Origin: Nitrospiria bacterium
GTDB taxonomy: Bacteria > Nitrospirota > Nitrospiria > SBBL01 > JAADHI01
Reading direction: 5' to 3'
DNA length: 58,491 bases
Assembly: GCA_046756865.1 (NCBI GenBank)
Contig: JBHHXE010000002.1
Location: forward strand, 1-58,491
The notes below the pieces were generated by a model, which worked only from the letters and a program-made list of their open reading frames with translations, was not told the DNA's origin and did no database searches. This document shows positions 1,026 through 34,171 of the stretch, piece after piece (within the stretch, counting starts at the first letter, position 1; every line of letters begins with the position of its first letter). A program made the position numbers and the translations under genes.

Positions 1026-1262
1026 TCAGGGCTTGACCAACTGCGAAGGAAAGGTGTCGAACTGAATTTCCGATACGGGTACAACATGGAGGCGTTTACA
1101 CCGTTTACACTTCAGCTCGAGCCCCTCTTGACAGAACCGGGCAATTAGGCTTCCGCAAAAACATCTAAAATCATGCGGATTAGAAGCTTCCTGAGTTGAT
1201 GATTGCTTTGTCGGTTTGATGTGCTTCACCTCAGAATCCTGTCCGCTAGACAATGGAACCAA
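1026..1262 (-). CDS. small basic zinc-ribbon protein (Com-like), hypothetical
   Basis: 78-aa ORF with a TTG start. An alternative in-frame GTG at 1229 is preceded by AGGA. Cys pairs (CFC ... CKRC) in a basic context resemble Mu Com-type zinc ribbons. Recognised by eye only. Confidence 0.4.
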   Translation of the reverse strand: MVPLSSGQDSEVKHIKPTKQSSTQEASNPHDFRCFCGSLIARFCQEGLELKCKRCKRLHVVPVSEIQFDTFPSQLVKP

Positions 1263-7108: not shown

Positions 7109-8020
7109 CTAAATATTGAGTTTGAAAAAATTCTTAACCTGCCGCTTCAGGATGAGTTGTTTCAGTTCATCCACTTTAAGGCGAGCCGCCTCTTCTCCCC
7201 TCTTCATCGCCTCTTTGTACCGCCAGAAATCGGACCAGTGAATATCGTCCATTTTGGGGGAGATCACGAGGTCCGCACTGGATAACTGCAGATGGGAGAG
7301 GGTTCGTCGTGTGATTTCACCCGACCTGAGAACAATATCGAGTCCACTGTTGAGACCATCTGAAGCATCCTTCTCTTCCGAAATATCCACCGCGATGGTG
7401 AAATTCGCTCCAAGCTTTCTTAGAGGCTCAACCGGAACCTGATTGACCCATCCTCCGTCAATCAGCAATGCGTCCCCAATTTTGATAGGAGGGAAAACAC
7501 CCGGAATCGCGCAACTGGCCGCAACGCTCTTTCTTAACGGCCCCTTGGTCAAAACCACTTCATCCCCTCCAATGAGATCTGCTGCGAGGGCCGCGAAGGG
7601 AACCACCGTCTCATCCATTTCTTTATCATCCAAAAGGTAGCTGAGGTGTTCGAGAAAATCTTCTTCGGGGATGAAGGAAGTGCGTTGAAGGGAAATACCC
7701 CAAAATATTCCCTTTTGAAGGTAGGATCTAATGCTGGAAAGAAAATCTGTAGTTTTGTTCTGCTCGTAGTGTTTTTTTATGAAAAATATTTTCGTCCGAC
7801 GAAACCGGCTGCCTCCCAGGAATTTGATCACCCGTTCACGGACTGAATCCACGTTTGGGGTCTGGGCATACATCGCACCGACGATGGAACCAAAGCTGGT
7901 TCCGGCAATCAGGTGAAAAGGGATGTCTTCTTCCTCAAGCACCTTCAACACGCCAAGATGCGCGATGCCTTTGGCCCCGCCACCCCCGAGCGCCAATCCA
8001 ACTTTTACAAATGGTGTCAT
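7109..8020 (-). CDS. patatin-like phospholipase (RssA-like)
   Basis: GGGGAKG oxyanion motif, GTSFG (GxSxG) and DGG catalytic Asp. I place the start at ATG 8020 (MTPFVKVGLALGGGG), because the ORF-track start at 8095 would overlap the upstream gene. Confidence 0.85.
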   Translation of the reverse strand: MTPFVKVGLALGGGGAKGIAHLGVLKVLEEEDIPFHLIAGTSFGSIVGAMYAQTPNVDSVRERVIKFLGGSRFRRTKIFFIKKHYEQNKTTDFLSSIRSYLQKGIFWGISLQRTSFIPEEDFLEHLSYLLDDKEMDETVVPFAALAADLIGGDEVVLTKGPLRKSVAASCAIPGVFPPIKIGDALLIDGGWVNQVPVEPLRKLGANFTIAVDISEEKDASDGLNSGLDIVLRSGEITRRTLSHLQLSSADLVISPKMDDIHWSDFWRYKEAMKRGEEAARLKVDELKQLILKRQVKNFFKLNI

Positions 8021-8033
8021 TTTGACTATAGAG

Positions 8034-8270
8034 TTACTCCCCTTCTTTTTTCTCAGCCGCCGCCTCAGATCCCTTCTTTCGGGCCTTCGCCTCAATGGAA
8101 GCCGTGCGCGCGATCAGGCGCTTGCTTCTTCGCTGGGCCCGCTTCAATTTCTTTCTGAGTCCCCGTTCCTGCACCGCGTCTTTAGACGCGTCTTTTTTCC
8201 CGATGCTGACCTTCAAGGCTTTAATCTTTTTCTCCAGCTTACTGACAACTGTCACTTTTTTTGCCGCCAT
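8034..8270 (-). CDS. small Lys/Arg-rich basic protein, hypothetical
   Basis: 78-aa ORF that is tightly packed: its stop lies 13 nt before the patatin start. Highly basic, low complexity (KK, RKKLKRAQRRSKR, KARKKG). No family recognised. Confidence 0.45.
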   Translation of the reverse strand: MAAKKVTVVSKLEKKIKALKVSIGKKDASKDAVQERGLRKKLKRAQRRSKRLIARTASIEAKARKKGSEAAAEKKEGE

Positions 8271-8328
8271 GCTTCCCTCCGATAATATACAATGTCATCC
8301 TGTTATTTTTTCCGCCATACACGGCAAA

Positions 8329-16865: not shown

Positions 16866-17060
16866 CAAAAAGGTCCCCGCATTGCCGTAAGGGCGATCAG
16901 CTCAAACCTGGGTGTTCAGGTGGGCACCAAGACGGAGACATTAGGCTTTTCCACCAGTGGCGGAACGTGCTCACAGCCCCCTTGAACTCGGCTCCCTTGC
17001 TGTCGTTGTTAGGCTTGAAGACTAACCATTTACGCACAATGCAGGGACACCCTCTGACTT
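16866..17060 (-). ncRNA. ssrS: candidate 6S RNA-like long-hairpin ncRNA
   Basis: A roughly 195-nt imperfect hairpin. Pairings are 16875-16884/17037-17046, 16886-16890/17030-17034 and 16912-16924/16977-16989, with an apical hairpin at 16949-16965 and large internal loops. The minus strand has an upstream TTGAAA-17-TAGGAT promoter and a TTTTT tract after the closing stem. The position just downstream of zapA matches the zapA-ssrS synteny known from E. coli. Not verified against a covariance model. Confidence 0.35.
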
Positions 17061-25940: not shown

Positions 25941-25969
25941 TTGACAAGCTCAAGGGAGTTTTTTATATT
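25941..25969 (+). promoter_or_regulatory. consensus-like sigma70 promoter upstream of fur
   Basis: TTGACA (25941-25946), a 17-nt spacer, then TATATT (25964-25969). Confidence 0.55.
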
Positions 25970-26029
25970 ACTTTTTCACCAATTTTAGAATGGGGCAGCT
26001 TTAGGAACCCAAGCCGTAAGGGAGTCCGG

Positions 26030-26485
26030 GTGACCAAGGAAGAAGAGATTCTTCAAGACCACATCACAACACACCGACTCAAGGTGACCAAAGAGCGCAA
26101 GGCAATCCTGCGTGTCTTTATGAACACCGAAAGGCATGTAACCGCAGAAGAGCTACACCGGGAGATGAAGAATACAGGCTCCTCCATTGGACTCGCCACC
26201 ATCTACCGGACCTTAAACCTCTTTTGTGAGAGCGGCCTTGCGGAACAACGCCATTTCGGAGACGGACAGGCCCGTTACGAACTAACTTATAATGTACATC
26301 ACCATGATCATCTTGTCTGCAAACAGTGCAACCGCATTATTGAATTTGAAAATCGCGAGATTGAAAGATTGCAGGAAAAAGTGGCCAAAAAAAACCGTTT
26401 TACCATCGACAGCCACAAACTGGAACTCTACGGAACTTGCGAGACCTGCACCAAGAGCAATGCAAAAAGCAAAGCCAAGAATTAA
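26030..26485 (+). CDS. fur: Fur-family metalloregulator
   Basis: Winged-helix region (LKVTKERKAILRVF...SIGLATIYRTLNLF), an HHHDH metal site and two CxxC pairs (CKQC, CETC). I place the start at GTG 26030, preceded by GGAG and a 5-nt spacer. The ORF-track start (25886) would cover the promoter. Confidence 0.8.
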   Translation: MTKEEEILQDHITTHRLKVTKERKAILRVFMNTERHVTAEELHREMKNTGSSIGLATIYRTLNLFCESGLAEQRHFGDGQARYELTYNVHHHDHLVCKQCNRIIEFENREIERLQEKVAKKNRFTIDSHKLELYGTCETCTKSNAKSKAKN

Positions 26486-26577
26486 AGTAAAGAGTAAAAA
26501 ATAAAAAGCCAGAGTTCCTCTGAGAGCCCGTGCCCAACACAAACACAACCACTTCACTCGACAGGAGGAATATTGCA

Positions 26578-27771
26578 ATGGTATTAAGAAGATGGATTAT
26601 ATCAACCTTAATGATCTTACCGCTGGTCTTCGCGCAATCGGGCTGGACCCAGACACCGGGCCAGGGAGCCGCATCGCCATCGCAGATGGAAATGGAAGAG
26701 GGCGACGCCCCCAGGCTCACGTTCAGCGGGTATGGTGAACTTCATTACAACATCCCGAGCAGCGTCAATGGCGCTGCAAAAAACTCCAAGATGGATTTCC
26801 ATCGCCTCGTCCTCGGCTGGAACTATGTGTTCAGCGATCGGATCACGCTCTATGCAGAAGCGGAGTTTGAGCATGCCGCCCAGGAGATGGAACTGGAATT
26901 TGCCTTCCTCGACTTTTTTATTGATCCGGCCTTCAACGTCCGCGCCGGTGCCCTTCTCATGCCGGTCGGGCCCTTAAATGAATACCATGAACCCCCGCTC
27001 TTCTACAGCGTGGAGCGGCCCTATTTCCAAAAATTCATCATACCGACCACCTGGCAGGAAGGCGGAATCGGAGTCTTTGGATCACCCCTTCCTGGCTTAA
27101 ACTATCGCGTCTACCTCGTCTCCGGTCTAAACTCATCAGGATTCAGCGGAGAGAACGGTCTCAGGAAGGGCCGCGGCAAGGTTGCCGGGGCAGAAGGAAA
27201 ACCAAAGACAGGGGAAGAGCTTGCTGTCGTCGGCCGGTTGGAATACAGCCCGATGGCAGGTTTTGACCTTGGCCTCTCTCTGTATCAAGGCAATTCAAAT
27301 CAGGACAATGATCCGAATCTTGGAGATGACGCGGGCGTCAGCATTGTGGAAGTCGACGGCCGGGCCCGAGTCTCCGGCATTGATTTCCGGGCGGTCTATG
27401 CTCAGATTGAGATTGACGACTCAGCTCAGATCAATTCCGCAAATGGCTTACTGACTCCTGGTAAGGCTACGGATGTCGCCGAAGAGATCACCGGATGGTA
27501 TGTTGAACTGGCCTATCGCTTGGGGCAAACAAAGGGAACCGATTGGGATCTCGTTCCCTTTGTCCGCCTCGAGGAGATCAACACCCATGACAAAGTGGCG
27601 GCAACGACGACACTTAACCCTGCTTTTAACAGAAATGTCACCACCTACGGTGTCGCCTATTTCCCTCATCCCCAAGTCGCCTTCAAGGCCGACTATGAAG
27701 ACTGGGAGAATGATGATCCCAATGATCCGGATTGGGAGCAATTCAATCTCGGCTTGGCCTTCATGTTCTAA
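26578..27771 (+). CDS. outer-membrane beta-barrel porin-like protein (porin O/P-like pattern), paralog 1
   Basis: ATG 26578 lies behind an AGGAGG RBS. It has a signal peptide (MVLRRWIISTLMILPLVFAQS), alternating beta-strand pattern and a C-terminal aromatic residue (AFMF). The family assignment is by eye. Confidence 0.65.
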   Translation: MVLRRWIISTLMILPLVFAQSGWTQTPGQGAASPSQMEMEEGDAPRLTFSGYGELHYNIPSSVNGAAKNSKMDFHRLVLGWNYVFSDRITLYAEAEFEHAAQEMELEFAFLDFFIDPAFNVRAGALLMPVGPLNEYHEPPLFYSVERPYFQKFIIPTTWQEGGIGVFGSPLPGLNYRVYLVSGLNSSGFSGENGLRKGRGKVAGAEGKPKTGEELAVVGRLEYSPMAGFDLGLSLYQGNSNQDNDPNLGDDAGVSIVEVDGRARVSGIDFRAVYAQIEIDDSAQINSANGLLTPGKATDVAEEITGWYVELAYRLGQTKGTDWDLVPFVRLEEINTHDKVAATTTLNPAFNRNVTTYGVAYFPHPQVAFKADYEDWENDDPNDPDWEQFNLGLAFMF

Positions 27772-27808
27772 GCCTCAGAAGGCCTGGATTGGATTTAAGA
27801 TCAATGAT

Positions 27809-27840
27809 CGAAAGGCGGCCCCCGGGCCGCCTTTCGTTTT
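27809..27840 (+). terminator. rho-independent terminator after porin paralog 1
   Basis: A 12-bp GC-rich stem cgaaaggcggcc/ggccgcctttcg with a 4-nt loop, followed by TTTT. Confidence 0.8.
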
Positions 27841-27871
27841 AGGTTGGCATCAGATCCACCAAAATATCCAC

Positions 27872-27900
27872 TTGACTATTTCAAGGGATTTTCCTAGTAT
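27872..27900 (+). promoter_or_regulatory. sigma70-like promoter of porin paralog 2
   Basis: TTGACT (27872-27877), a 17-nt spacer, then TAGTAT (27895-27900). Confidence 0.55.
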
Positions 27901-27908
27901 AAATCGCC

Positions 27909-27927
27909 GATTATAATAATCATTTTC
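27909..27927. promoter_or_regulatory. Fur box
   Basis: GATTATAATAATCATTTTC matches 16 of 19 positions of GATAATGATAATCATTATC (counted by eye). It lies 9 nt downstream of the -10 element. Confidence 0.65.
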
Positions 27928-27977
27928 AGTCTAAAATCATGAGAGGATGAGGTTATTCTTCCGCCTCAAAAAAAATT

Positions 27978-29162
27978 ATGATAAAAACAAAAAGACACAT
28001 CAACCGACTTACAGGGCTTTTGCCCCTCCTCACGATAACCACCTTGCTCTTTGTGCAGTCCGGCCGGGCTGAGACCACGGCAATGAAAGTGACACCGGCA
28101 GACACTTCCAAGCTCTCCTTTCACGGTTACGGCGAGCTTCACTTTCATACGCCAAAGGGCACAGACTTCCCCGAAAATGAGGCCCCCGCCGAGGCGGATC
28201 TTCACCGAATGGTCTGGGGAATCAGCTACGACATGAGTGACTGGATCATCCTCCATACGGGGATCGACTTCGAACAGGCCCAAGAGGAATTGCAGTTGGA
28301 GTTTGTCTATCTTCACTTTTTGATCAACCCCCTCTTCAATGTCCGTGTCGGCAGCCTCCTGGTTCCGGTGGGCCCCCTGAATGAATTCCATGAACCGCCT
28401 CTCTTTTACAGTGTCTCCCGACCCTACGTCCAAAGACATATTATTCCGACCACCTGGCAGGAAGCCGGAATTGGAGTCTTCGGCACACTGCTCCCGGGAT
28501 TAAATTATCGTGCCTATATTCTTTCTTCACTGGATGCGAGACGGTTTGACGGCGTTTCGGGGATAAGGAACGGCAGGAGGGGCGCGTCCGAGGCCGAGTC
28601 TGATGATCTTGCCCTTGTTCTGCGAAGCGAATATACCCCGATGAGCGGGGTCGACCTTGGCCTCTCCCTCTATAACGGGGGCGCAGACGCATCCAAGAAG
28701 GTGGGCGGAAATGCCCGTGTCCAAATCCTTGAGTGGGATGTCCGGCTCCGGATGGAAGGCTTCGACCTCCAGTGGGTCTCCGTCCTCATCGACATCGACG
28801 ATGCCGCCGCAATTAATGCGGCGCACACAGACAAAGACGGCAATGCCGCCCCGCTGATCGGGTCCGATTCGGTCGGCACACAACTATCCGGCACGACCCT
28901 CGAAGCCGCTTACCACCTGTCCTATTTGACGAGAGCCGAATGGGATCTCGTTCCCTTTGTCCGTTTTGAGGCCATCAATACGCAAGACGATGTCCCTGCC
29001 GGATTTTCCGCAAACCCAGCAAATGACCGGGAGATCCTGACCGTCGGGACCGCCTATTATCCCCACCCGCAGGTGGTCCTCAAGCTCGACCGGGAGTCCT
29101 GGGAAGATGGGACCGGTAGGACTGAACTTCGATATAATCTAGGGGCCGCCTATATGTTCTAA
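27978..29162 (+). CDS. outer-membrane beta-barrel porin-like protein, paralog 2
   Basis: Alignable over its full length with 26578-27771. Shared blocks include GYGELH, LEF..L.F.I.P.FNVR.G.LL.PVGPLNE.HEPPLFYSV.RPY, IIPTTWQE.GIGVFG, PGLNYR, WDLVPFVR and YPHPQV. Signal peptide present; C-terminal YMF. Confidence 0.65.
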   Translation: MIKTKRHINRLTGLLPLLTITTLLFVQSGRAETTAMKVTPADTSKLSFHGYGELHFHTPKGTDFPENEAPAEADLHRMVWGISYDMSDWIILHTGIDFEQAQEELQLEFVYLHFLINPLFNVRVGSLLVPVGPLNEFHEPPLFYSVSRPYVQRHIIPTTWQEAGIGVFGTLLPGLNYRAYILSSLDARRFDGVSGIRNGRRGASEAESDDLALVLRSEYTPMSGVDLGLSLYNGGADASKKVGGNARVQILEWDVRLRMEGFDLQWVSVLIDIDDAAAINAAHTDKDGNAAPLIGSDSVGTQLSGTTLEAAYHLSYLTRAEWDLVPFVRFEAINTQDDVPAGFSANPANDREILTVGTAYYPHPQVVLKLDRESWEDGTGRTELRYNLGAAYMF

Positions 29163-29170
29163 GCTTTTTG

Positions 29171-29290
29171 CCAGGATTCAGAACACCCATCTTTTCATCC
29201 ATGGCGGCGTTGTTGTGGGACTCGAATCCTCGCGTATACATATACGCTGCGGTCCTGCGCTCCCCACGCCTTGCCCTGGAGGATGGGTCT
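29171..29290. repeat. structured intergenic repeat, family F2, copy c (inverted)
   Basis: Its reverse complement reads CCAGGGCAAGGCGTGGGGAGCGCAGGACCGCAGCGTATATGTATACGCGAGGATTCGAGTCCCACAACAACGC. Confidence 0.75.
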
Positions 29291-29384
29291 CACGAAGCCA
29301 AAATAGTGGCATGCTAAACCCTGACGGCTCTGTTAACCTCTGCGCCGATTTGGTCTACCCTTAATAAGGAAATCACTCAATAAT

Positions 29385-30899
29385 ATGGACCGATACATCC
29401 GAAGAATCCGCCACCTCATGGGCGCTTCCTTTGAAATTACCGCATATGGTCAGGAGAGAGCCTGTGCTTCAGGAATCGCCGCGGCTTTTAGCGAAGTGGA
29501 CCGGATCGAGCGCCTCCTGACTGTTTACAAACCGGAAAGTGAGCTGGCCCGACTGAACCGCTATGCCCGGAAGGGCTTTGTCCGGCTCGACCCCGAGATG
29601 CTTGAGATACTTTCCGAAGCCCTCCGTTATGCCGAGGCCAGCGGCGGGGCCTATGACCCGACTGCGGGCCCCTTGATCGACCTCTGGGGATTCGGACCGG
29701 CTGGACAATGCAGCTCTCCTCCCTCAAAAGAAATCATTCGTTCGCGCCTCCGATCTGTCGGCCATCAAGGTGTGAGGATAGATCCTGATGTGGGCGGCGT
29801 TTTCTTGCTTCGGGAGAGCATGGCCCTGAACCTCGGCGGGATCGGAAAGGGTTATGCCCTTGATCAGGCAGTCCGGATACTCAAGTCTCATGAAATCACG
29901 CGGGGACTGGTCAGCTTTGGAAGCACACTCTACGCCTGGGGCGCTCCCCCCGGCACGACAGGATGGTCCATCGCAATTCAAGATCCCCGCCGGGAAAACA
30001 GGCAAATCGAAACGGTGATCCTCCGCGATCAGGCCCTCTCCACCTCCGGTGATTACGAACGTTGCTTCTTCTACAAGGGAAAACGTTTCTCCCATATCAT
30101 CCACCCAAAGAAAGGATATCCTGTCACAGGGGTGGCAAGCGTGAGCGTCATCGCTCCAAGCGCCATGTCCTCAGACGTCCTCTCAACCGCAGCCTTCGTC
30201 CTGGGTCCCAAAAAAGGGAAAAAACTAATCATGCGCTTTGCAGGAGTAGAAGGCCTCATCCTTCCTGAAGAGAACGGGAAGGCACTCAACGCAAAGAAAA
30301 CCCCTGGGTGGGCGGCGTATTCCCTTCCCCGTCCGATAGCCCGCAGACGTTTTCTGGCAATGACCTGTGCCGCCCTGATCACCCTTGTGCTCCCCATCGG
30401 CGTAGACGCGGCAATCCGCTTTGCGACAAAAGAGGCAGCGCTTGGAAGACTGATGCCCGAGGCAGAGGCCTTTGAAGCGCAACATGTTGAACTCTCTCGT
30501 GAACAACTTTCACAGGCTCAGCAACTCGCCAAAAAGGGGTTTCGAAAAAAAAATTACCGATGGTGGATTGGCCGAAAGGGGAAGGATGCGGTCGGCTACG
30601 CGGTTCTTCTCAATGTCCGCGGGAAAAAGCGCCCAATCACATTTCTCGTCGGGATTGACCCCATCGGACAAATTAGAGGCGTAGAGGTCCTGATCTACCG
30701 TGAATCGGAAGGTGCTGGCATCCGGTACCCCCAGTTTATGAAACAGTTTCTGGATAAAACAAAAGAAAGCACCCTTCGGCTTGGGGGTGATATCCGCGCC
30801 CTCAGCGGGGCCACCCTTTCTTCGCGCGCGGCAACCTATGCCGTCCGGAAGGCCTTGTCTCTCTTCGAGGTCATTTACATGAAAGAGCGTGCATTGTGA
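29385..30899 (+). CDS. apbE: FAD:protein FMN transferase (ApbE) fused via a TM segment to an FMN_bind domain
   Basis: The N-terminal roughly 320 aa is ApbE-like (MGASFEITAYG, YDPTAGPLIDLWGFG, LNLGGIGKGYALD, STSGDYERCF). Then comes RRRFLAMTCAALITLVLPIGV. The C-terminal domain carries the FMN_bind flavinylation-type motif LSGATLSSRA. Confidence 0.75.
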   Translation: MDRYIRRIRHLMGASFEITAYGQERACASGIAAAFSEVDRIERLLTVYKPESELARLNRYARKGFVRLDPEMLEILSEALRYAEASGGAYDPTAGPLIDLWGFGPAGQCSSPPSKEIIRSRLRSVGHQGVRIDPDVGGVFLLRESMALNLGGIGKGYALDQAVRILKSHEITRGLVSFGSTLYAWGAPPGTTGWSIAIQDPRRENRQIETVILRDQALSTSGDYERCFFYKGKRFSHIIHPKKGYPVTGVASVSVIAPSAMSSDVLSTAAFVLGPKKGKKLIMRFAGVEGLILPEENGKALNAKKTPGWAAYSLPRPIARRRFLAMTCAALITLVLPIGVDAAIRFATKEAALGRLMPEAEAFEAQHVELSREQLSQAQQLAKKGFRKKNYRWWIGRKGKDAVGYAVLLNVRGKKRPITFLVGIDPIGQIRGVEVLIYRESEGAGIRYPQFMKQFLDKTKESTLRLGGDIRALSGATLSSRAATYAVRKALSLFEVIYMKERAL

Positions 30900-31384
30900 A
30901 AAATTTTATCCGGAATAACGCCTGGATTGAAAAAACCTCACTCGAAATTCGCTGGATCTACACCCTCTTCATCGTCTTCGCTCTGATCGGTCATCTGAGC
31001 TTCATCCTGATCGCCGTATCACGCGTCGGCCCCGGGTATGACGATATTGTCCAGCACTATCGCGGCGGAGACAACGAAGAAGAAATGGCCTTTCCGAAGG
31101 AATTTATAGAACTTCTGGAGGTCACCCACTTTCACGCCTACATCGAAGGAATTCTCCTCCTGGTTCTGGCCCATCTCTATGTTGCCGTTCCACATTCACG
31201 TCGGATAAAACTGGCGGTTATCGGCATATCTTTTGGGAGCACCCTGCTCGACCTGCTCTCCCCGTGGCTGATTCGTTATCTCTCGGCATACGCAGCCTTC
31301 GGTCAAATCGGGGCCTGGATCGGAATGAGTCTCAGCTATCTTCCCCTGACGCTCGTCCCGCTCTACACCATGTGGAAAAAATGA
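30896..31384 (+). CDS. 4-TM membrane protein of unknown family
   Basis: 162 aa with four hydrophobic helices carrying His residues (IGHLSF, THFHAYIEG, LAHLY). The GTG start overlaps the apbE stop (GTGA) and its stop overlaps the next start (ATGA). Confidence 0.6.
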   Translation: MKNFIRNNAWIEKTSLEIRWIYTLFIVFALIGHLSFILIAVSRVGPGYDDIVQHYRGGDNEEEMAFPKEFIELLEVTHFHAYIEGILLLVLAHLYVAVPHSRRIKLAVIGISFGSTLLDLLSPWLIRYLSAYAAFGQIGAWIGMSLSYLPLTLVPLYTMWKK

Positions 31385-33069
31385 ACCGATCCTCCCACGC
31401 GCCACAACCCCTCACCCCCTCAGACGGGCTTTCCGCTCGCTTAAAATGGCCGGGGCTTTCCGGATGGAAGCTCATCCCCTTTTTTGTTGCCACCCTCGTC
31501 ATGATTCCGCTGGCTATGGTACTTTCCTCATTTTTTCGGCCCGGCGACGACGTCTGGCAGCACCTTGTAAATACCCTTCTGGGACGCTTACTCATGAATA
31601 CCTTCCAGCTGAGTCTCGGCGTTTTGAGTGGAACAGCCCTGATCGGGGTCAGCCTGGCCTGGTTCTGCGCCACTTGTGATTTCCCCTTCAGAAAATTCTT
31701 TGATCGGGCCTTGATGCTTCCCATGGCAATCCCCGCCTATGTTACCGCTTTTGTGGCCATCGGCCTCCTCGATTTTTCCGGCCCGGTCCAGACGCTTCTT
31801 CGGCGCTGGTTTGGCGATGCGCTCCGGTTTCCGAATATCCGTTCCACAGGGGGCGTGATCATCGTGATGATTCTGGCCCTCTACCCCTACGTTTATCTTC
31901 TCACACGTAATGCCTTCCTCAGCCAGGGGAGGCGTGCAATGGAGGCCGCACAGTCGCTAGGACTCGGCCGCTGGCGGGGTTTCTTCCGTGTGGCCCTTCC
32001 GATGGGAAGGCCCTGGATCTTTGGAGGTCTATTGCTGGTTCTCATGGAAACGCTTGCGGATTTCGGCACAGTCTCCATTTTTAACTACGACACCTTTGCA
32101 ACAGCCATCTACAAAGCCTGGTTCGGGTTCTTCTCACTTTCTGCGGCGTCCCAACTCGCCTCGCTCTTGATCCTGATCGTCTTTATTCTCCTCTGGATGG
32201 AGCAGAAATTTACGGACAAAACCCGCTACACGCAGGTCGAAAAATCCGGCGCCCGCGGGGACCGCATTGTACTGCGCCCCCTGACCGGGTGGCTTGTATT
32301 TGCCTATACCTCTACAGTCTTTCTTGTCGCTTTTATGATTCCAGTTATCCAACTTTCTGTATGGGCACTTCATACCTTTCAGAAAGACTTCAGCACCCGG
32401 TATTTCTCTTTTTTGTCTCATTCTCTTTTTCTGGGAGGATTCGGTGCGCTTCTCACGATCGCGACGGCCCTCCTCCTGGCCTATGCGCTCCGCCTGCACG
32501 ACAACCCCCTCAACCGCCTCATGGCCCGAATCGCCACCCTGGGCTACGCCCTGCCCGGAAGCGTCCTGGCCGTCGGGATCTTCATCCCGCTGGCCTGGCT
32601 TGATAATAAATTAATCGCCCTGGGGAAAACGTGGTTTGACCTGGATCCCGGCCAGATCTTCAACGGTACCCTGGTGGCCATGTTCCTCGCCTACCTGGTC
32701 CGCTTCCTTGCAGTCGCCTATCATCCCGTTCGGAGCGCGATCAAACGCATTACGCCCTCAATCGACGAAACGTCACGAAGCCTCCGCGTCACCGGCATTT
32801 CGATGTTGCGGAAGGTCCATCTGCCTGTCTTACGCGGCGGACTTTTCACCGCTGCCACGCTCGTTTTTGTCGATATCATGAAGGAGATGCCGATTACCCT
32901 GATGACACGCCCTTTTGGATGGGACACTCTGGCGATCCGGATTTACGAGATGACTTCAGAGGGAGAATGGGAACGCGCAGCCCTGCCGGCAATGGTCCTC
33001 GTCCTGACCGGCCTATTCCCGATCATTCTCTTGACTAAAAATGCACAGGGGTTTGGCGATGGGAAATAA
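31381..33069 (+). CDS. ABC transporter permease, duplicated 12-TM ferric-iron (FbpB/AfuB) or ThiP type
   Basis: A roughly 560-aa permease with two internal repeats, each with an EAA-like loop (EAAQSLGLGRWRGFFRVALP; ETSRSLRVTGISMLRKVHLP). Start at the ATGA overlap at 31381. Confidence 0.8.
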   Translation: MNRSSHAPQPLTPSDGLSARLKWPGLSGWKLIPFFVATLVMIPLAMVLSSFFRPGDDVWQHLVNTLLGRLLMNTFQLSLGVLSGTALIGVSLAWFCATCDFPFRKFFDRALMLPMAIPAYVTAFVAIGLLDFSGPVQTLLRRWFGDALRFPNIRSTGGVIIVMILALYPYVYLLTRNAFLSQGRRAMEAAQSLGLGRWRGFFRVALPMGRPWIFGGLLLVLMETLADFGTVSIFNYDTFATAIYKAWFGFFSLSAASQLASLLILIVFILLWMEQKFTDKTRYTQVEKSGARGDRIVLRPLTGWLVFAYTSTVFLVAFMIPVIQLSVWALHTFQKDFSTRYFSFLSHSLFLGGFGALLTIATALLLAYALRLHDNPLNRLMARIATLGYALPGSVLAVGIFIPLAWLDNKLIALGKTWFDLDPGQIFNGTLVAMFLAYLVRFLAVAYHPVRSAIKRITPSIDETSRSLRVTGISMLRKVHLPVLRGGLFTAATLVFVDIMKEMPITLMTRPFGWDTLAIRIYEMTSEGEWERAALPAMVLVLTGLFPIILLTKNAQGFGDGK

Positions 33070-34171
33070 AACGATTATCGAGTTACTTCATGTGAGCCGA
33101 CAATACAAAAACAGCCAATCACCTGCCGCGCACGACGTCTCGCTTCATGTTGAAGAAGGAAAGATCCTCGCACTCCTGGGACCCAGCGGGAGTGGCAAGA
33201 CAACCCTGCTCCGCTTAATCGCAGGTTTTGAGGCCCCGGACCAGGGAAAGATCTTGCTCGCAGGACGCGAAGTCAGCCGCCGCGCGGCATTCGTCCCTCC
33301 CGAACAAAGAGGCATCGGGATGGTCTTTCAGGATTATGCCCTTTTTCCCCACTTGTCCGTCACGGCAAATGTGGGGTTCGGATTAAGCCACTTGAGCCGG
33401 CGCGACCAGCGTCTTAAAGAAGATGAAACCCTGGAGATGGTCGGCCTCTCCGCATTGCGTCATCGCTTCCCGCATGAGCTCTCCGGAGGACAGCAGCAGC
33501 GCGTCGCCCTGGCGCGCGCCCTCGCGCCCGACCCGATTGTTCTTCTCCTGGACGAACCCTTCAGCAACCTTGATCCCGATATGCGGACACGGATGCAGCG
33601 TGAAGTGTCGTCCATCCTCGAAAAAACAGGGAGCACGGCCATCCTGGTAACCCACGATCACGAGGAAGCCTTTGCGATGGCGGATCATGTCGCCCTTCTC
33701 AATGAAGGCGTTTTAGAACAGCACGATACGCCGGAGGTCATTTATCATACTCCAGTGACCCCTTTTGTGGCTGACTTTGTCGGAAAGGCCGATTTTATTC
33801 CGGGAATCGTCCGGAATCATTTGATTGAAACAGAGATCAGCACATTTCCAAATGATCAAAAACTTCCGACCGGGATGGAGGTCATGGTGATGATTCGCCC
33901 GGACGACATCGACCTGATTCCAAACCCGAGGGGGGAAAATACCTTGTTCAGACGGCAATTCCGCGGCTCGGAGAACGTCTACTGCATCCTGCTCCCTTCC
34001 GGCCAGGTCCTTCACAGCAGCCAACACTCCCTGACGGTCTATCCGGATCGAACCAGGGTCGAATTGAAACTGAAAGTAACCCATACGGTGATTTTTAAAA
34101 AAGAAGCAGCTGTCTTTGAAAAAGACAGCACCGGTCGCTATCGGGTCCGGTCAAGTGAATCGTTACCGTAA
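33059..34171 (+). CDS. ABC transporter ATP-binding protein (FbpC/PotA-like with C-terminal TOBE-like domain)
   Basis: Walker A GPSGSGKTT, signature LSGGQQQRVALARAL and Walker B LLLDEP. The start overlaps the permease stop. Confidence 0.85.
   Translation: MGNKTIIELLHVSRQYKNSQSPAAHDVSLHVEEGKILALLGPSGSGKTTLLRLIAGFEAPDQGKILLAGREVSRRAAFVPPEQRGIGMVFQDYALFPHLSVTANVGFGLSHLSRRDQRLKEDETLEMVGLSALRHRFPHELSGGQQQRVALARALAPDPIVLLLDEPFSNLDPDMRTRMQREVSSILEKTGSTAILVTHDHEEAFAMADHVALLNEGVLEQHDTPEVIYHTPVTPFVADFVGKADFIPGIVRNHLIETEISTFPNDQKLPTGMEVMVMIRPDDIDLIPNPRGENTLFRRQFRGSENVYCILLPSGQVLHSSQHSLTVYPDRTRVELKLKVTHTVIFKKEAAVFEKDSTGRYRVRSSESLP

Follow-up and report, generated by a model that had tools for sequence, protein, structure and literature searches.

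A gene cluster behind a putative Fur box in a Nitrospiria bacterium as a candidate flavin-based module for reductive iron acquisition

The gene cluster analyzed here consists of seven co-directional open reading frames (ORFs) located on the forward strand between positions 25941 and 34171 of a 58,491-nucleotide stretch of DNA (the window) from a Nitrospiria bacterium (GenBank assembly GCA_046756865.1, contig JBHHXE010000002.1). In order, the cluster encodes a Fur-family regulator, two porin-like paralogs, a fusion of the flavinylating enzyme ApbE to an FMN_bind domain, a four-helix membrane protein of the Aq_1264_TM family, and the FbpB-like permease and FbpC-like ATPase of an ATP-binding cassette (ABC) importer. 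On balance, the evidence favors the cluster being a Fur-repressed, reductive iron-acquisition module. The functional statements made about it draw on sequence, predicted structure and gene neighborhood. An earlier description made from the letters of the window alone (the sequence-only reading) had already linked the cluster to iron, and comparative genomics supports that link through neighbors of the FbpABC, FTR1 and FeoAB types. Of the computational checks that the sequence-only reading had named as capable of refuting it, each was carried out and none went against it.

The module would operate as follows. Under iron limitation, Fur would be released from a box lying over the beginning of the porin 2 promoter, and porin 2, the ApbE::FMN_bind fusion, Aq_1264_TM and the FbpB/FbpC-like importer would then be transcribed together. 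The dedicated porins would let an iron species into the periplasm. In the cytoplasm, the ApbE domain would use flavin adenine dinucleotide (FAD) to attach flavin mononucleotide (FMN) covalently to Thr477 of its own FMN_bind domain, and the folded holo-domain would pass through the twin-arginine translocation (Tat) pathway by means of an internal twin-arginine signal, probably being cleaved after an AxA site. Aq_1264_TM, whose second helix carries an invariant HxH and a third conserved histidine, would supply the periplasmic flavin with electrons drawn from the membrane or the cytoplasm. The reduced flavin would reduce Fe(III), and the linked importer would take up the iron, this being an FbpBC-type system here and FTR1 or FeoAB in other lineages. 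Oxidation of Fe(II) in place of reduction was rejected for thermodynamic reasons, given the low midpoint potential of FMN, and the FeoAB linkage also points to a ferrous product. A further-reaching proposal is that a self-maturing pro-protein, electron entry through Aq_1264_TM as a new class of membrane protein and a dedicated metal-selective porin together make up a complete reductive route for iron from the outer membrane to the cytoplasm, with direct hand-off to FbpBC without FbpA in some lineages; this is put forward tentatively and may well prove too ambitious.

The seven genes, a terminator, two promoters, a Fur box and the start/stop codon overlaps all lie where the sequence-only reading had placed them, and profile hidden Markov model (HMM) and fold searches back each of its gene assignments. 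Small corrections apply to the start codons, which are likely GTG 26031 for fur and ATG 26578 for porin 1, and are placed at ATG 31381 for the permease. The fusion gene (29385-30899, +) overlaps the Aq_1264_TM gene (30896-31384, +) by a stop/start GTGA, the latter overlaps the permease gene (31381-33069, +) by ATGA, and the permease end overlaps the ATPase gene (33041-34171, +; start at 33041 or 33059), as read directly in the sequence. The tight packing described for the cluster thus holds across its last four genes and fails at the junction between porin 2 and the fusion gene, where an unconserved spacer of 222 base pairs (bp; 29163-29384) intervenes. A riboswitch or attenuator in this spacer was considered and rejected, as the spacer has no Rfam match, is not conserved in an orthologous locus and has a folding z-score of -0.85.

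That orthologous locus is a metagenomic contig (L034) that carries an 88%-identical ortholog and is fully syntenic, with a GSDH gene on the opposite strand followed by fur, two porins, the fusion, Aq_1264_TM, permease and ATPase genes and a Fis-like gene on the opposite strand. The fur gene (26031-26485, +) encodes 151 amino acids from GTG 26031, in a frame that is open back to 25886; this start was chosen from the ribosome-binding site AAGGGAG and the L034 ortholog. Its product matches the Fur domain PF01475 (E 3e-38), and its best NCBIfam match is the Fur equivalog (118 bits against a cutoff of 146), with the PerR and Zur models scoring lower. A promoter-like site precedes fur (25941-25969, +; TTGACA, 17 nucleotides, TATATT; 11/12 consensus), and its -35 and -10 elements are kept in L034. 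An intrinsic terminator with a 12-bp GC-rich stem and a subsequent T run (27809-27836, +) follows porin 1, its hairpin being identical in L034. The porin 2 operon then begins with its own promoter-like site (27872-27900, +; TTGACT, 17 nucleotides, TAGTAT). The putative Fur box GATTATAATAATCATTTTC (27909-27927, +) matches 16 of 19 consensus positions, starts 9 bp downstream of the -10 element and, judging from sequence only, overlaps this promoter. It is the sole match with three or fewer mismatches in the 58-kilobase (kb) window, where 0.03 are expected. The terminator, the -35 and -10 elements and the Fur box are all conserved in L034, while the flanking intergenic sequence has diverged. Fur-box-like 19-mers with up to four mismatches also lie directly before the first genes of the orthologous operons at at least 14 loci (L001, L002, L005-L008, L010-L013, L016, L018, L020 and L035).

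A second candidate site for Fur is found 25 kb from the cluster, upstream of a zinc-ribbon ORF (CFCGS...CKRCK) at window positions 1026-1262 on the reverse strand. This ORF is a homolog of the 72-amino-acid ORF found between fur and the porin gene in Candidatus (Ca.) Manganitrophus and other loci. It is preceded by a Fur-box-like 19-mer (15/19) and by a TTGACA promoter, the upstream signals lying at 1268-1286 and about 1316-1330, and the promoter contains a 15-mer, AAAGAGCTTGACAAG, that also occurs in the fur promoter. The ORF has no Pfam family among those searched and is probably another member of the Fur regulon.

The two porin-like genes encode true paralogs, with 47% identity between the proteins (E 4e-109). 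Porin 1 (26578-27771, +; frame open from 26530) has a likely start at ATG 26578 preceded by AGGAGG, a signal peptide and a C-terminal phenylalanine; the porin sequences of the window end in MF. Its Pfam matches to Porin_O_P, Porin_4 and OMP_b-brl are all below threshold, with Porin_O_P (PF07396) reaching 19.5 bits against a cutoff of 20.9. Porin 2 (27978-29162, +; 394 amino acids with a signal peptide) has no Pfam match, and some homologs bear a precomputed PF07396 annotation. An AlphaFold model of porin 2 built with 24 homologs (predicted local distance difference test, pLDDT, 79.7) is a 16-stranded beta-barrel that Foldseek matches to OmpC, OmpF and OprP with probability 1.0 and E values from 1e-12 to 1e-10. 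Conservation in the family is highest in a long loop that lies between strands 5 and 6, VGPLNEFHEPPLFYSV.RPY..IIPTTWQE (porin 2 residues 128-161, window 28359-28460), in which residues N, E, H, E and P are invariant; porin 1 has an equivalent part. The loop is placed where general porins have their constriction loop, and its glutamate and histidine residues could form a selectivity filter for cations or metals.

The fusion protein (504 amino acids) contains an almost complete ApbE domain (PF02424; residues 12-289, profile positions 1-263 of 266, E 4.6e-82) and an FMN_bind domain (PF04205; residues 413-492, E 7e-11), in agreement with the domains named in the sequence-only reading. Structure matches include ApbE 1vrm (E 2e-45) and RnfG 7zc6_G. 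In an alignment of 16 homologs with 39-72% identity, the ApbE motifs GKGY, STSGDYE, HIIxP and DxLSTA are invariant. The published flavinylation motif is [S/T]GA[S/T] (PMC8238504), and the fusion carries SGAT at residues 474-477 (30804-30815, +), with S474, G475 and A476 invariant and position 477 either T or S in the same alignment; Thr477 is the predicted site of FMN attachment.

A feature missed in the sequence-only reading, and with it the predicted cytoplasmic site of the ApbE domain, is a twin-arginine-type signal peptide between the two domains. This segment, ARRRFLAMTCAALITLVLPIGVDAA (residues 319-343; 30339-30413, +), consists of an SRRxFL type motif, a hydrophobic region and an AxA end, and R320 and R321 are invariant in the 16 homologs. 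It is internal, behind ApbE, and not at the precursor N-terminus, and the fusion N-terminus lacks a hydrophobic segment, with the ApbE domain beginning at residue 12. This arrangement is general among fusions with the ApbE-then-FMN_bind order: an N-terminal hydrophobic segment is absent in 96 of 98, an internal RRx[FVIL][LIVMF] motif is present in the same number (96/98), a strict S/T-RRxF-L type motif in 84 and an AxA-like end in 82. The ApbE domain lacks the signal peptide or lipobox by which bacterial ApbE is typically placed in the periplasm, and is predicted to be cytoplasmic, which suggests that it acts there on its own C-terminal domain and that the holo-domain is then exported by Tat; cleavage would probably free the flavinylated domain. 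Actinobacterial Rieske proteins offer a precedent, as a twin-arginine motif before an internal hydrophobic helix directs Tat translocation of their folded, cofactor-loaded C-terminal domain. They differ from the fusion in family and cofactor and in having membrane helices in place of a soluble N-terminal enzyme, and the fusion has an AxA site after the helix.

Other members of the family distribute the same parts differently. Among unfused relatives, FMN_bind proteins that begin with a canonical Tat motif accompany an ApbE without a signal (L024, L094 and L107, and also L008, in which the fusion is split), and a Sec-type FMN_bind accompanies an ApbE with a hydrophobic N-terminus or lipobox (L002, L033 and L113). 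Two Planctomycetota proteins (L027 8377-9906 and L032 8380-9942) have the reversed FMN_bind-then-ApbE order with one N-terminal Sec-like signal. Because the domain order of these proteins is reversed behind a Sec-like signal, the fusion arose at least twice with different export logic.

The 162-amino-acid membrane protein encoded after the fusion has a precomputed PF27139 (Aq_1264_TM) annotation, as do all 70 of its homologs; a Pfam copy that predates PF27139 gave no match. PF27139 has no characterized member. The AlphaFold model (pLDDT 88) has four transmembrane helices, and the positive-inside rule puts both termini in the cytoplasm, so that an (E/D)xxHxH stretch would lie at the periplasmic start of helix 2 with H93 deeper in the membrane. 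Across 107 family representatives, H78 and H80 are conserved in 100%, G57 in 98% and H93 in 84%, and position 75 is Glu or Asp in about 87%, with E72 not conserved. A search with a profile of the family returned 798 representatives of 50%-identity clusters. Foldseek finds no match in the Protein Data Bank (PDB) with E<1 for this fold, the weak top matches being MAPEG trimers, in a search that included the FoxB, Nqr and Rnf structures. The family profile has no Pfam match even at E up to 10 and nothing significant among PDB sequences, the best being an unrelated NDH subunit at E 0.0018. Sequence and fold searches found no similarity to PepSY_TM, MsrQ, NapH, DsbD, NqrB/RnfD or DUF4405, which would put Aq_1264_TM outside all published families of flavinylation-linked membrane electron carriers. 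By analogy with FezC, a small membrane cytochrome that forms its heme b sites via homodimerization (PMC11334425), Aq_1264_TM may bind heme as a working hypothesis.

Three relatives (P0251, P0289 and P0321) are natural Aq_1264_TM::ApbE fusions joined via a fifth hydrophobic segment or lipobox, a joint that would put ApbE in the periplasm. These fusions provide independent gene-fusion evidence that both proteins work together.

Alternatively, Aq_1264_TM could be an iron-binding or iron-handling subunit that uses its conserved Glu/Asp and His residues at the periplasmic side to accept iron reduced, or just bound, at the flavoprotein and to pass it to the adjacent importer, standing in for FbpA where FbpA is absent, with the flavin drawing its electrons from an unlinked donor. 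The stretch E72-x-x-E75-x-x-H78-x-H80 resembles the ExxE iron motifs of FTR1, translational coupling between its gene and that of the permease is seen in exactly those loci that have no binding protein (the window, L034 and L035), and the protein resembles no known cytochrome. However, the variation at positions 72 and 75 leaves H78 and H80 as the only invariant residues of the stretch, the tie to FMN_bind is equally strong in loci with a full FbpABC, with FeoAB or without any transporter, and a flavoprotein lacking a linked source of electrons would stand out among those covered by the survey in PMC8238504. We regard this alternative as rather unlikely and retain electron transfer to the flavin as the proposed role.

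The conservation of the neighborhood was evaluated with one genome per species, using a scan with a family alignment followed by tblastn annotation, and each count refers to loci with enough flanking sequence. Homologs of the cluster occur in uncultured Nitrospirota of the Ca. Manganitrophaceae/Troglogloeales group, and the surveyed loci extend to Planctomycetota and other phyla at 28-43% identity. An FMN_bind gene lies directly upstream of Aq_1264_TM in all 31 of 31 species-representative loci, ApbE lies within 2.5 kb in 25 of 27, a member of the same porin family lies within 5 kb in 20 of 23, and at least one recognizable iron gene nearby in 16 of 21. The 162-amino-acid protein and the flavoprotein, whose co-localization the sequence-only reading had left to be checked in other genomes, occur together in essentially every locus examined, in Nitrospirota, Planctomycetota and other groups. 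A second scan of metagenome contigs, made with a narrower alignment, covered a divergent branch of the family; in 37 of 50 loci FMN_bind is the gene directly upstream, and 16 of 30 have a porin. Some loci of about 72% GC (L069, L077, L082, L096-L098 and L111) contain members of an Aq_1264_TM branch with no FMN_bind, ApbE or porin nearby; simple ORF calling is unreliable in these sequences.

Gene order is shuffled across lineages and the gene set remains together. In Ca. Manganitrophus the order is FbpA-like protein, permease, ATPase, fur, the small zinc-ribbon ORF, porin, fusion and Aq_1264_TM, and in another Nitrospirota lineage ExbB, ExbD, TonB and two ferritins join the core. Elsewhere, the core follows fur and an FTR1 permease (L024; PF03239, E 1e-51) or is followed by FeoA and FeoB (L028). 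Metagenomic loci also contain FTR1 (L054, L094 and L107) or FeoAB (L108), and ExbBD/TonB recurs among them. Genes for HmuY, ferritin, a TonB-dependent receptor and a PepSY_TM protein lie just upstream in L035. Three unrelated importers (FbpABC, FTR1 and FeoAB) are thus swapped beside the core, which ties the core to iron independently.

Small proteins of other kinds also accompany the fusion gene in some loci. A secreted protein of 150 amino acids is encoded directly upstream of it in L006 (8013-8465), L011 (4325-4771) and L035 (about 7923-8293), and in L006 two small Cys-rich ORFs precede this gene; all three are absent from the window. The 72-amino-acid zinc-ribbon protein, the Cys-rich proteins of 80 and 109 amino acids and the 150-amino-acid protein have no significant Pfam match.

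Another possibility is that the core of porin, flavoprotein and Aq_1264_TM serves generally as an outlet for electrons to the periplasm or cell exterior, as a small flavin analogue of porin-cytochrome conduits, or as a redox repair system; it would then adjoin iron genes in some lineages only and have no part in iron assimilation. Flavinylated proteins serve respiration too (PMC8238504), and iron genes are not detectable in the Planctomycetota loci L027 and L030-L033 or in most of the long metagenomic loci. That absence is itself weakly supported, because iron-gene detection by tblastn and phmmer with few queries is crude in distant, GC-rich loci. Against an electron outlet, the operon stands behind a conserved Fur box and beside fur, the core adjoins, in lineages that are unrelated, three iron importers that work by different mechanisms as well as ferritin and TonB systems, and no respiratory reductase or oxidase genes are linked to it. 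An outlet of this kind is considered quite improbable, and reductive iron acquisition remains the preferred function of the core.

Both ABC parts of the cluster appear from their sequences to be ferric-type. The permease (562 amino acids) contains two BPD_transp_1 stretches, and the ATPase contains ABC_tran and TOBE_2 domains. The closest solved relative of the permease is 9j4r_A, 'Iron ABC transporter permease' (E 2e-45, compared with 4e-12 for ModB), and those of the ATPase are 9j4r_B (3e-76) and FbpC 3fvq (4.5e-64). The structure of an Fe(3+) binding protein matches the binding protein encoded in sister loci (E 1e-125), and there are further matches to FutA and FbpA. The claim in the sequence-only reading of a ferric-type importer is accordingly upheld, its relatives being iron importers and not thiamine or polyamine systems. 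The best NCBIfam matches of permease and ATPase are PhnU2 and PhnT2, all far below cutoffs; import of phosphonate, molybdate or sulfate was rejected on the basis of the nearest PDB neighbors and the FbpA-type protein of sister loci. It is accordingly very improbable that fur with a porin, a flavinylation pair and an importer for 2-aminoethylphosphonate, molybdate or sulfate were brought together by chance, as the sub-cutoff Phn matches, the want of a binding protein to fix the substrate and the spacer before the fusion gene might suggest, given that permease/ATPase pairs orthologous to this iron-transporter-like pair adjoin a gene for that FbpA/FutA-type Fe(III) binding protein, that the gene set survives several rearrangements and that start and stop codons overlap across four genes.

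The sequence-only reading had called the importer binding-protein-less, which is correct for the window and for the syntenic L034 and incorrect for many sister loci with an FbpA-type neighbor (L001, L002, L007, L008, L010, L016, L018 and L020); it had missed that the absence is specific to one sub-lineage. No FbpA gene lies beside the permease in L005, L006, L009, L011, L012, L022 or L035. In FbpA-less loci, the permease gene either overlaps the Aq_1264_TM gene directly or adjoins a second porin of the Porin_4 family, so that loss of the adjacent binding protein accompanies gain of a second outer-membrane channel. The Porin_4 porin (about 380 amino acids) lies beside the permease/ATPase genes in L005 (13302-14393), L006 (11202-12344), L009 (5346-6470), L011 (7511-8629) and L012 (3047-4123). 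The window and L034 have a duplicate Porin_O_P-like gene in its place.

Several observations weigh against the cluster being a reductive iron-acquisition module. FbpABC systems are known as Fe(III) importers, for which a reductase partner is chemically not the most straightforward choice. An FbpA-type binding protein has no tblastn match in the 58-kb window or L034, and one could be encoded elsewhere in the genome. Iron genes were found in only 6 of 25 metagenome loci of at least 9 kb, with a limited query set, and none was detected beside the core in Planctomycetota loci; 13 of 50 metagenomic family members have no FMN_bind neighbor. Co-transcription from porin 2 into the fusion gene is assumed across the 222-bp spacer. 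Internal Tat signals are rare, and the covariation between a Tat motif and an ApbE without a signal comes from few independent lineages, with L054 ambiguous. Finally, a bis-His heme site in Aq_1264_TM would need oligomerization because the three conserved histidines share one helix, and the E/D-x-x-H-x-H stretch, which is placed on the periplasmic side, may instead bind a metal or quinol.

The proposed module has partial counterparts among known systems. Flavinylated systems have been linked to iron transporters, and PepSY-like clusters of this kind are Fur-repressed (PMC8238504). The PepSY-like (VciB/FoxB-type) clusters (Meheust et al., 2021, PMC8238504) likewise pair an inner-membrane protein with a periplasmic protein flavinylated by ApbE, are often Fur-repressed, lie near iron transporters and TonB, and are suggested to serve assimilation by reducing Fe(III) or ferric chelates. 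In the present cluster, by contrast, the partner is Aq_1264_TM, which has four helices with its histidines on one helix and no PepSY_TM match at E up to 10; the flavoprotein is FMN_bind and not DUF2271; the core contains a dedicated porin; and the importers are FbpBC, FTR1 or FeoAB and not VIT1. The DUF4405/FezC heme b cytochromes (Huang et al., 2024, PMC11334425) resemble Aq_1264_TM in being small or uncharacterized membrane proteins from apbE neighborhoods whose most conserved residues are membrane-embedded histidines, and FezC is linked to iron redox handling and ferrosomes. They differ in having no detectable similarity to Aq_1264_TM in sequence or fold and, for DUF4405, in having six helices with four central histidines in place of four helices with an HxH and one further histidine on one helix.

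P19/FTR1 and FtrABCD-type systems (PMC8238504) also co-encode a periplasmic redox protein, either FMN-binding or thioredoxin-like, with an iron permease, and the relatives of the module in L024, L054, L094 and L107 adjoin FTR1. The cluster differs from them in having no P19 or cupredoxin, an ABC importer, and its own porin and membrane partner. With FbpABC and FutABC it shares the fused 12-helix FbpB-type permease and the FbpC-like ATPase with TOBE domain, and sister loci have FbpA/FutA; unlike those systems, the window and its closest relatives have no adjacent binding protein and the permease gene is coupled to the Aq_1264_TM gene instead. In a review of ApbE, trypanosomatid fumarate reductase is the sole example of fusion to a substrate and Klebsiella the sole example of a cytoplasmic ApbE, and Tat goes unmentioned (PMC12052999). 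As in the fusion, ApbE is N-terminal to its predicted target in the same polypeptide in the former case, and lacks a secretion signal in the latter (PMC12052999). Those proteins stay intracellular, whereas the fusion has predicted export and a Tat-type signal between enzyme and substrate.

No account of the system came up in literature searches covering aq_1264, ApbE combined with twin-arginine, and FMN-binding ferric reductases together with FbpA, in keeping with the sequence-only reading, which had not recognized the combination. A genomics paper on Ca. Manganitrophaceae leaves ApbE, FMN and iron uptake unmentioned. The general notion of a role for ApbE-flavinylated proteins in iron reduction and assimilation (PMC8238504) and several of their membrane partners (PMC8238504, PMC11334425) are already published. 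Undescribed in the literature searched are Aq_1264_TM as such a partner, the porin family with the NEFHEPP loop, the polypeptide that combines enzyme, Tat signal and substrate, and likewise the FbpBC linkage with or without FbpA. The module probably represents a previously undescribed route by which iron is reduced in the periplasm ahead of import.

One further feature of the window, apart from the cluster, is a full-length 6S (SsrS) RNA gene at 16870-17050 on the reverse strand (Rfam RF00013, 86.7 bits).

Covalently flavinylated proteins are emerging as major extracytoplasmic electron carriers, and several are suspected in iron uptake. To our knowledge, no flavinylation-based iron system has been worked out mechanistically. 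The module would add a new membrane partner family, with about 800 cluster representatives at 50% identity and none characterized, as well as a dedicated porin. The polypeptide of enzyme, Tat signal and substrate bears on how flavin reaches periplasmic ApbE substrates and, if the proposed order of events is true, would allow a periplasmic covalent flavoprotein to mature without a need for periplasmic FAD. Linkage of a reductase to an FbpBC 'ferric' importer, in some loci without a binding protein, is relevant to the disagreement about the iron redox state that importers of this kind handle. Because the module occurs in the manganese-oxidizing Ca. Manganitrophus lineage, for which enrichment cultures exist, these predictions are testable.

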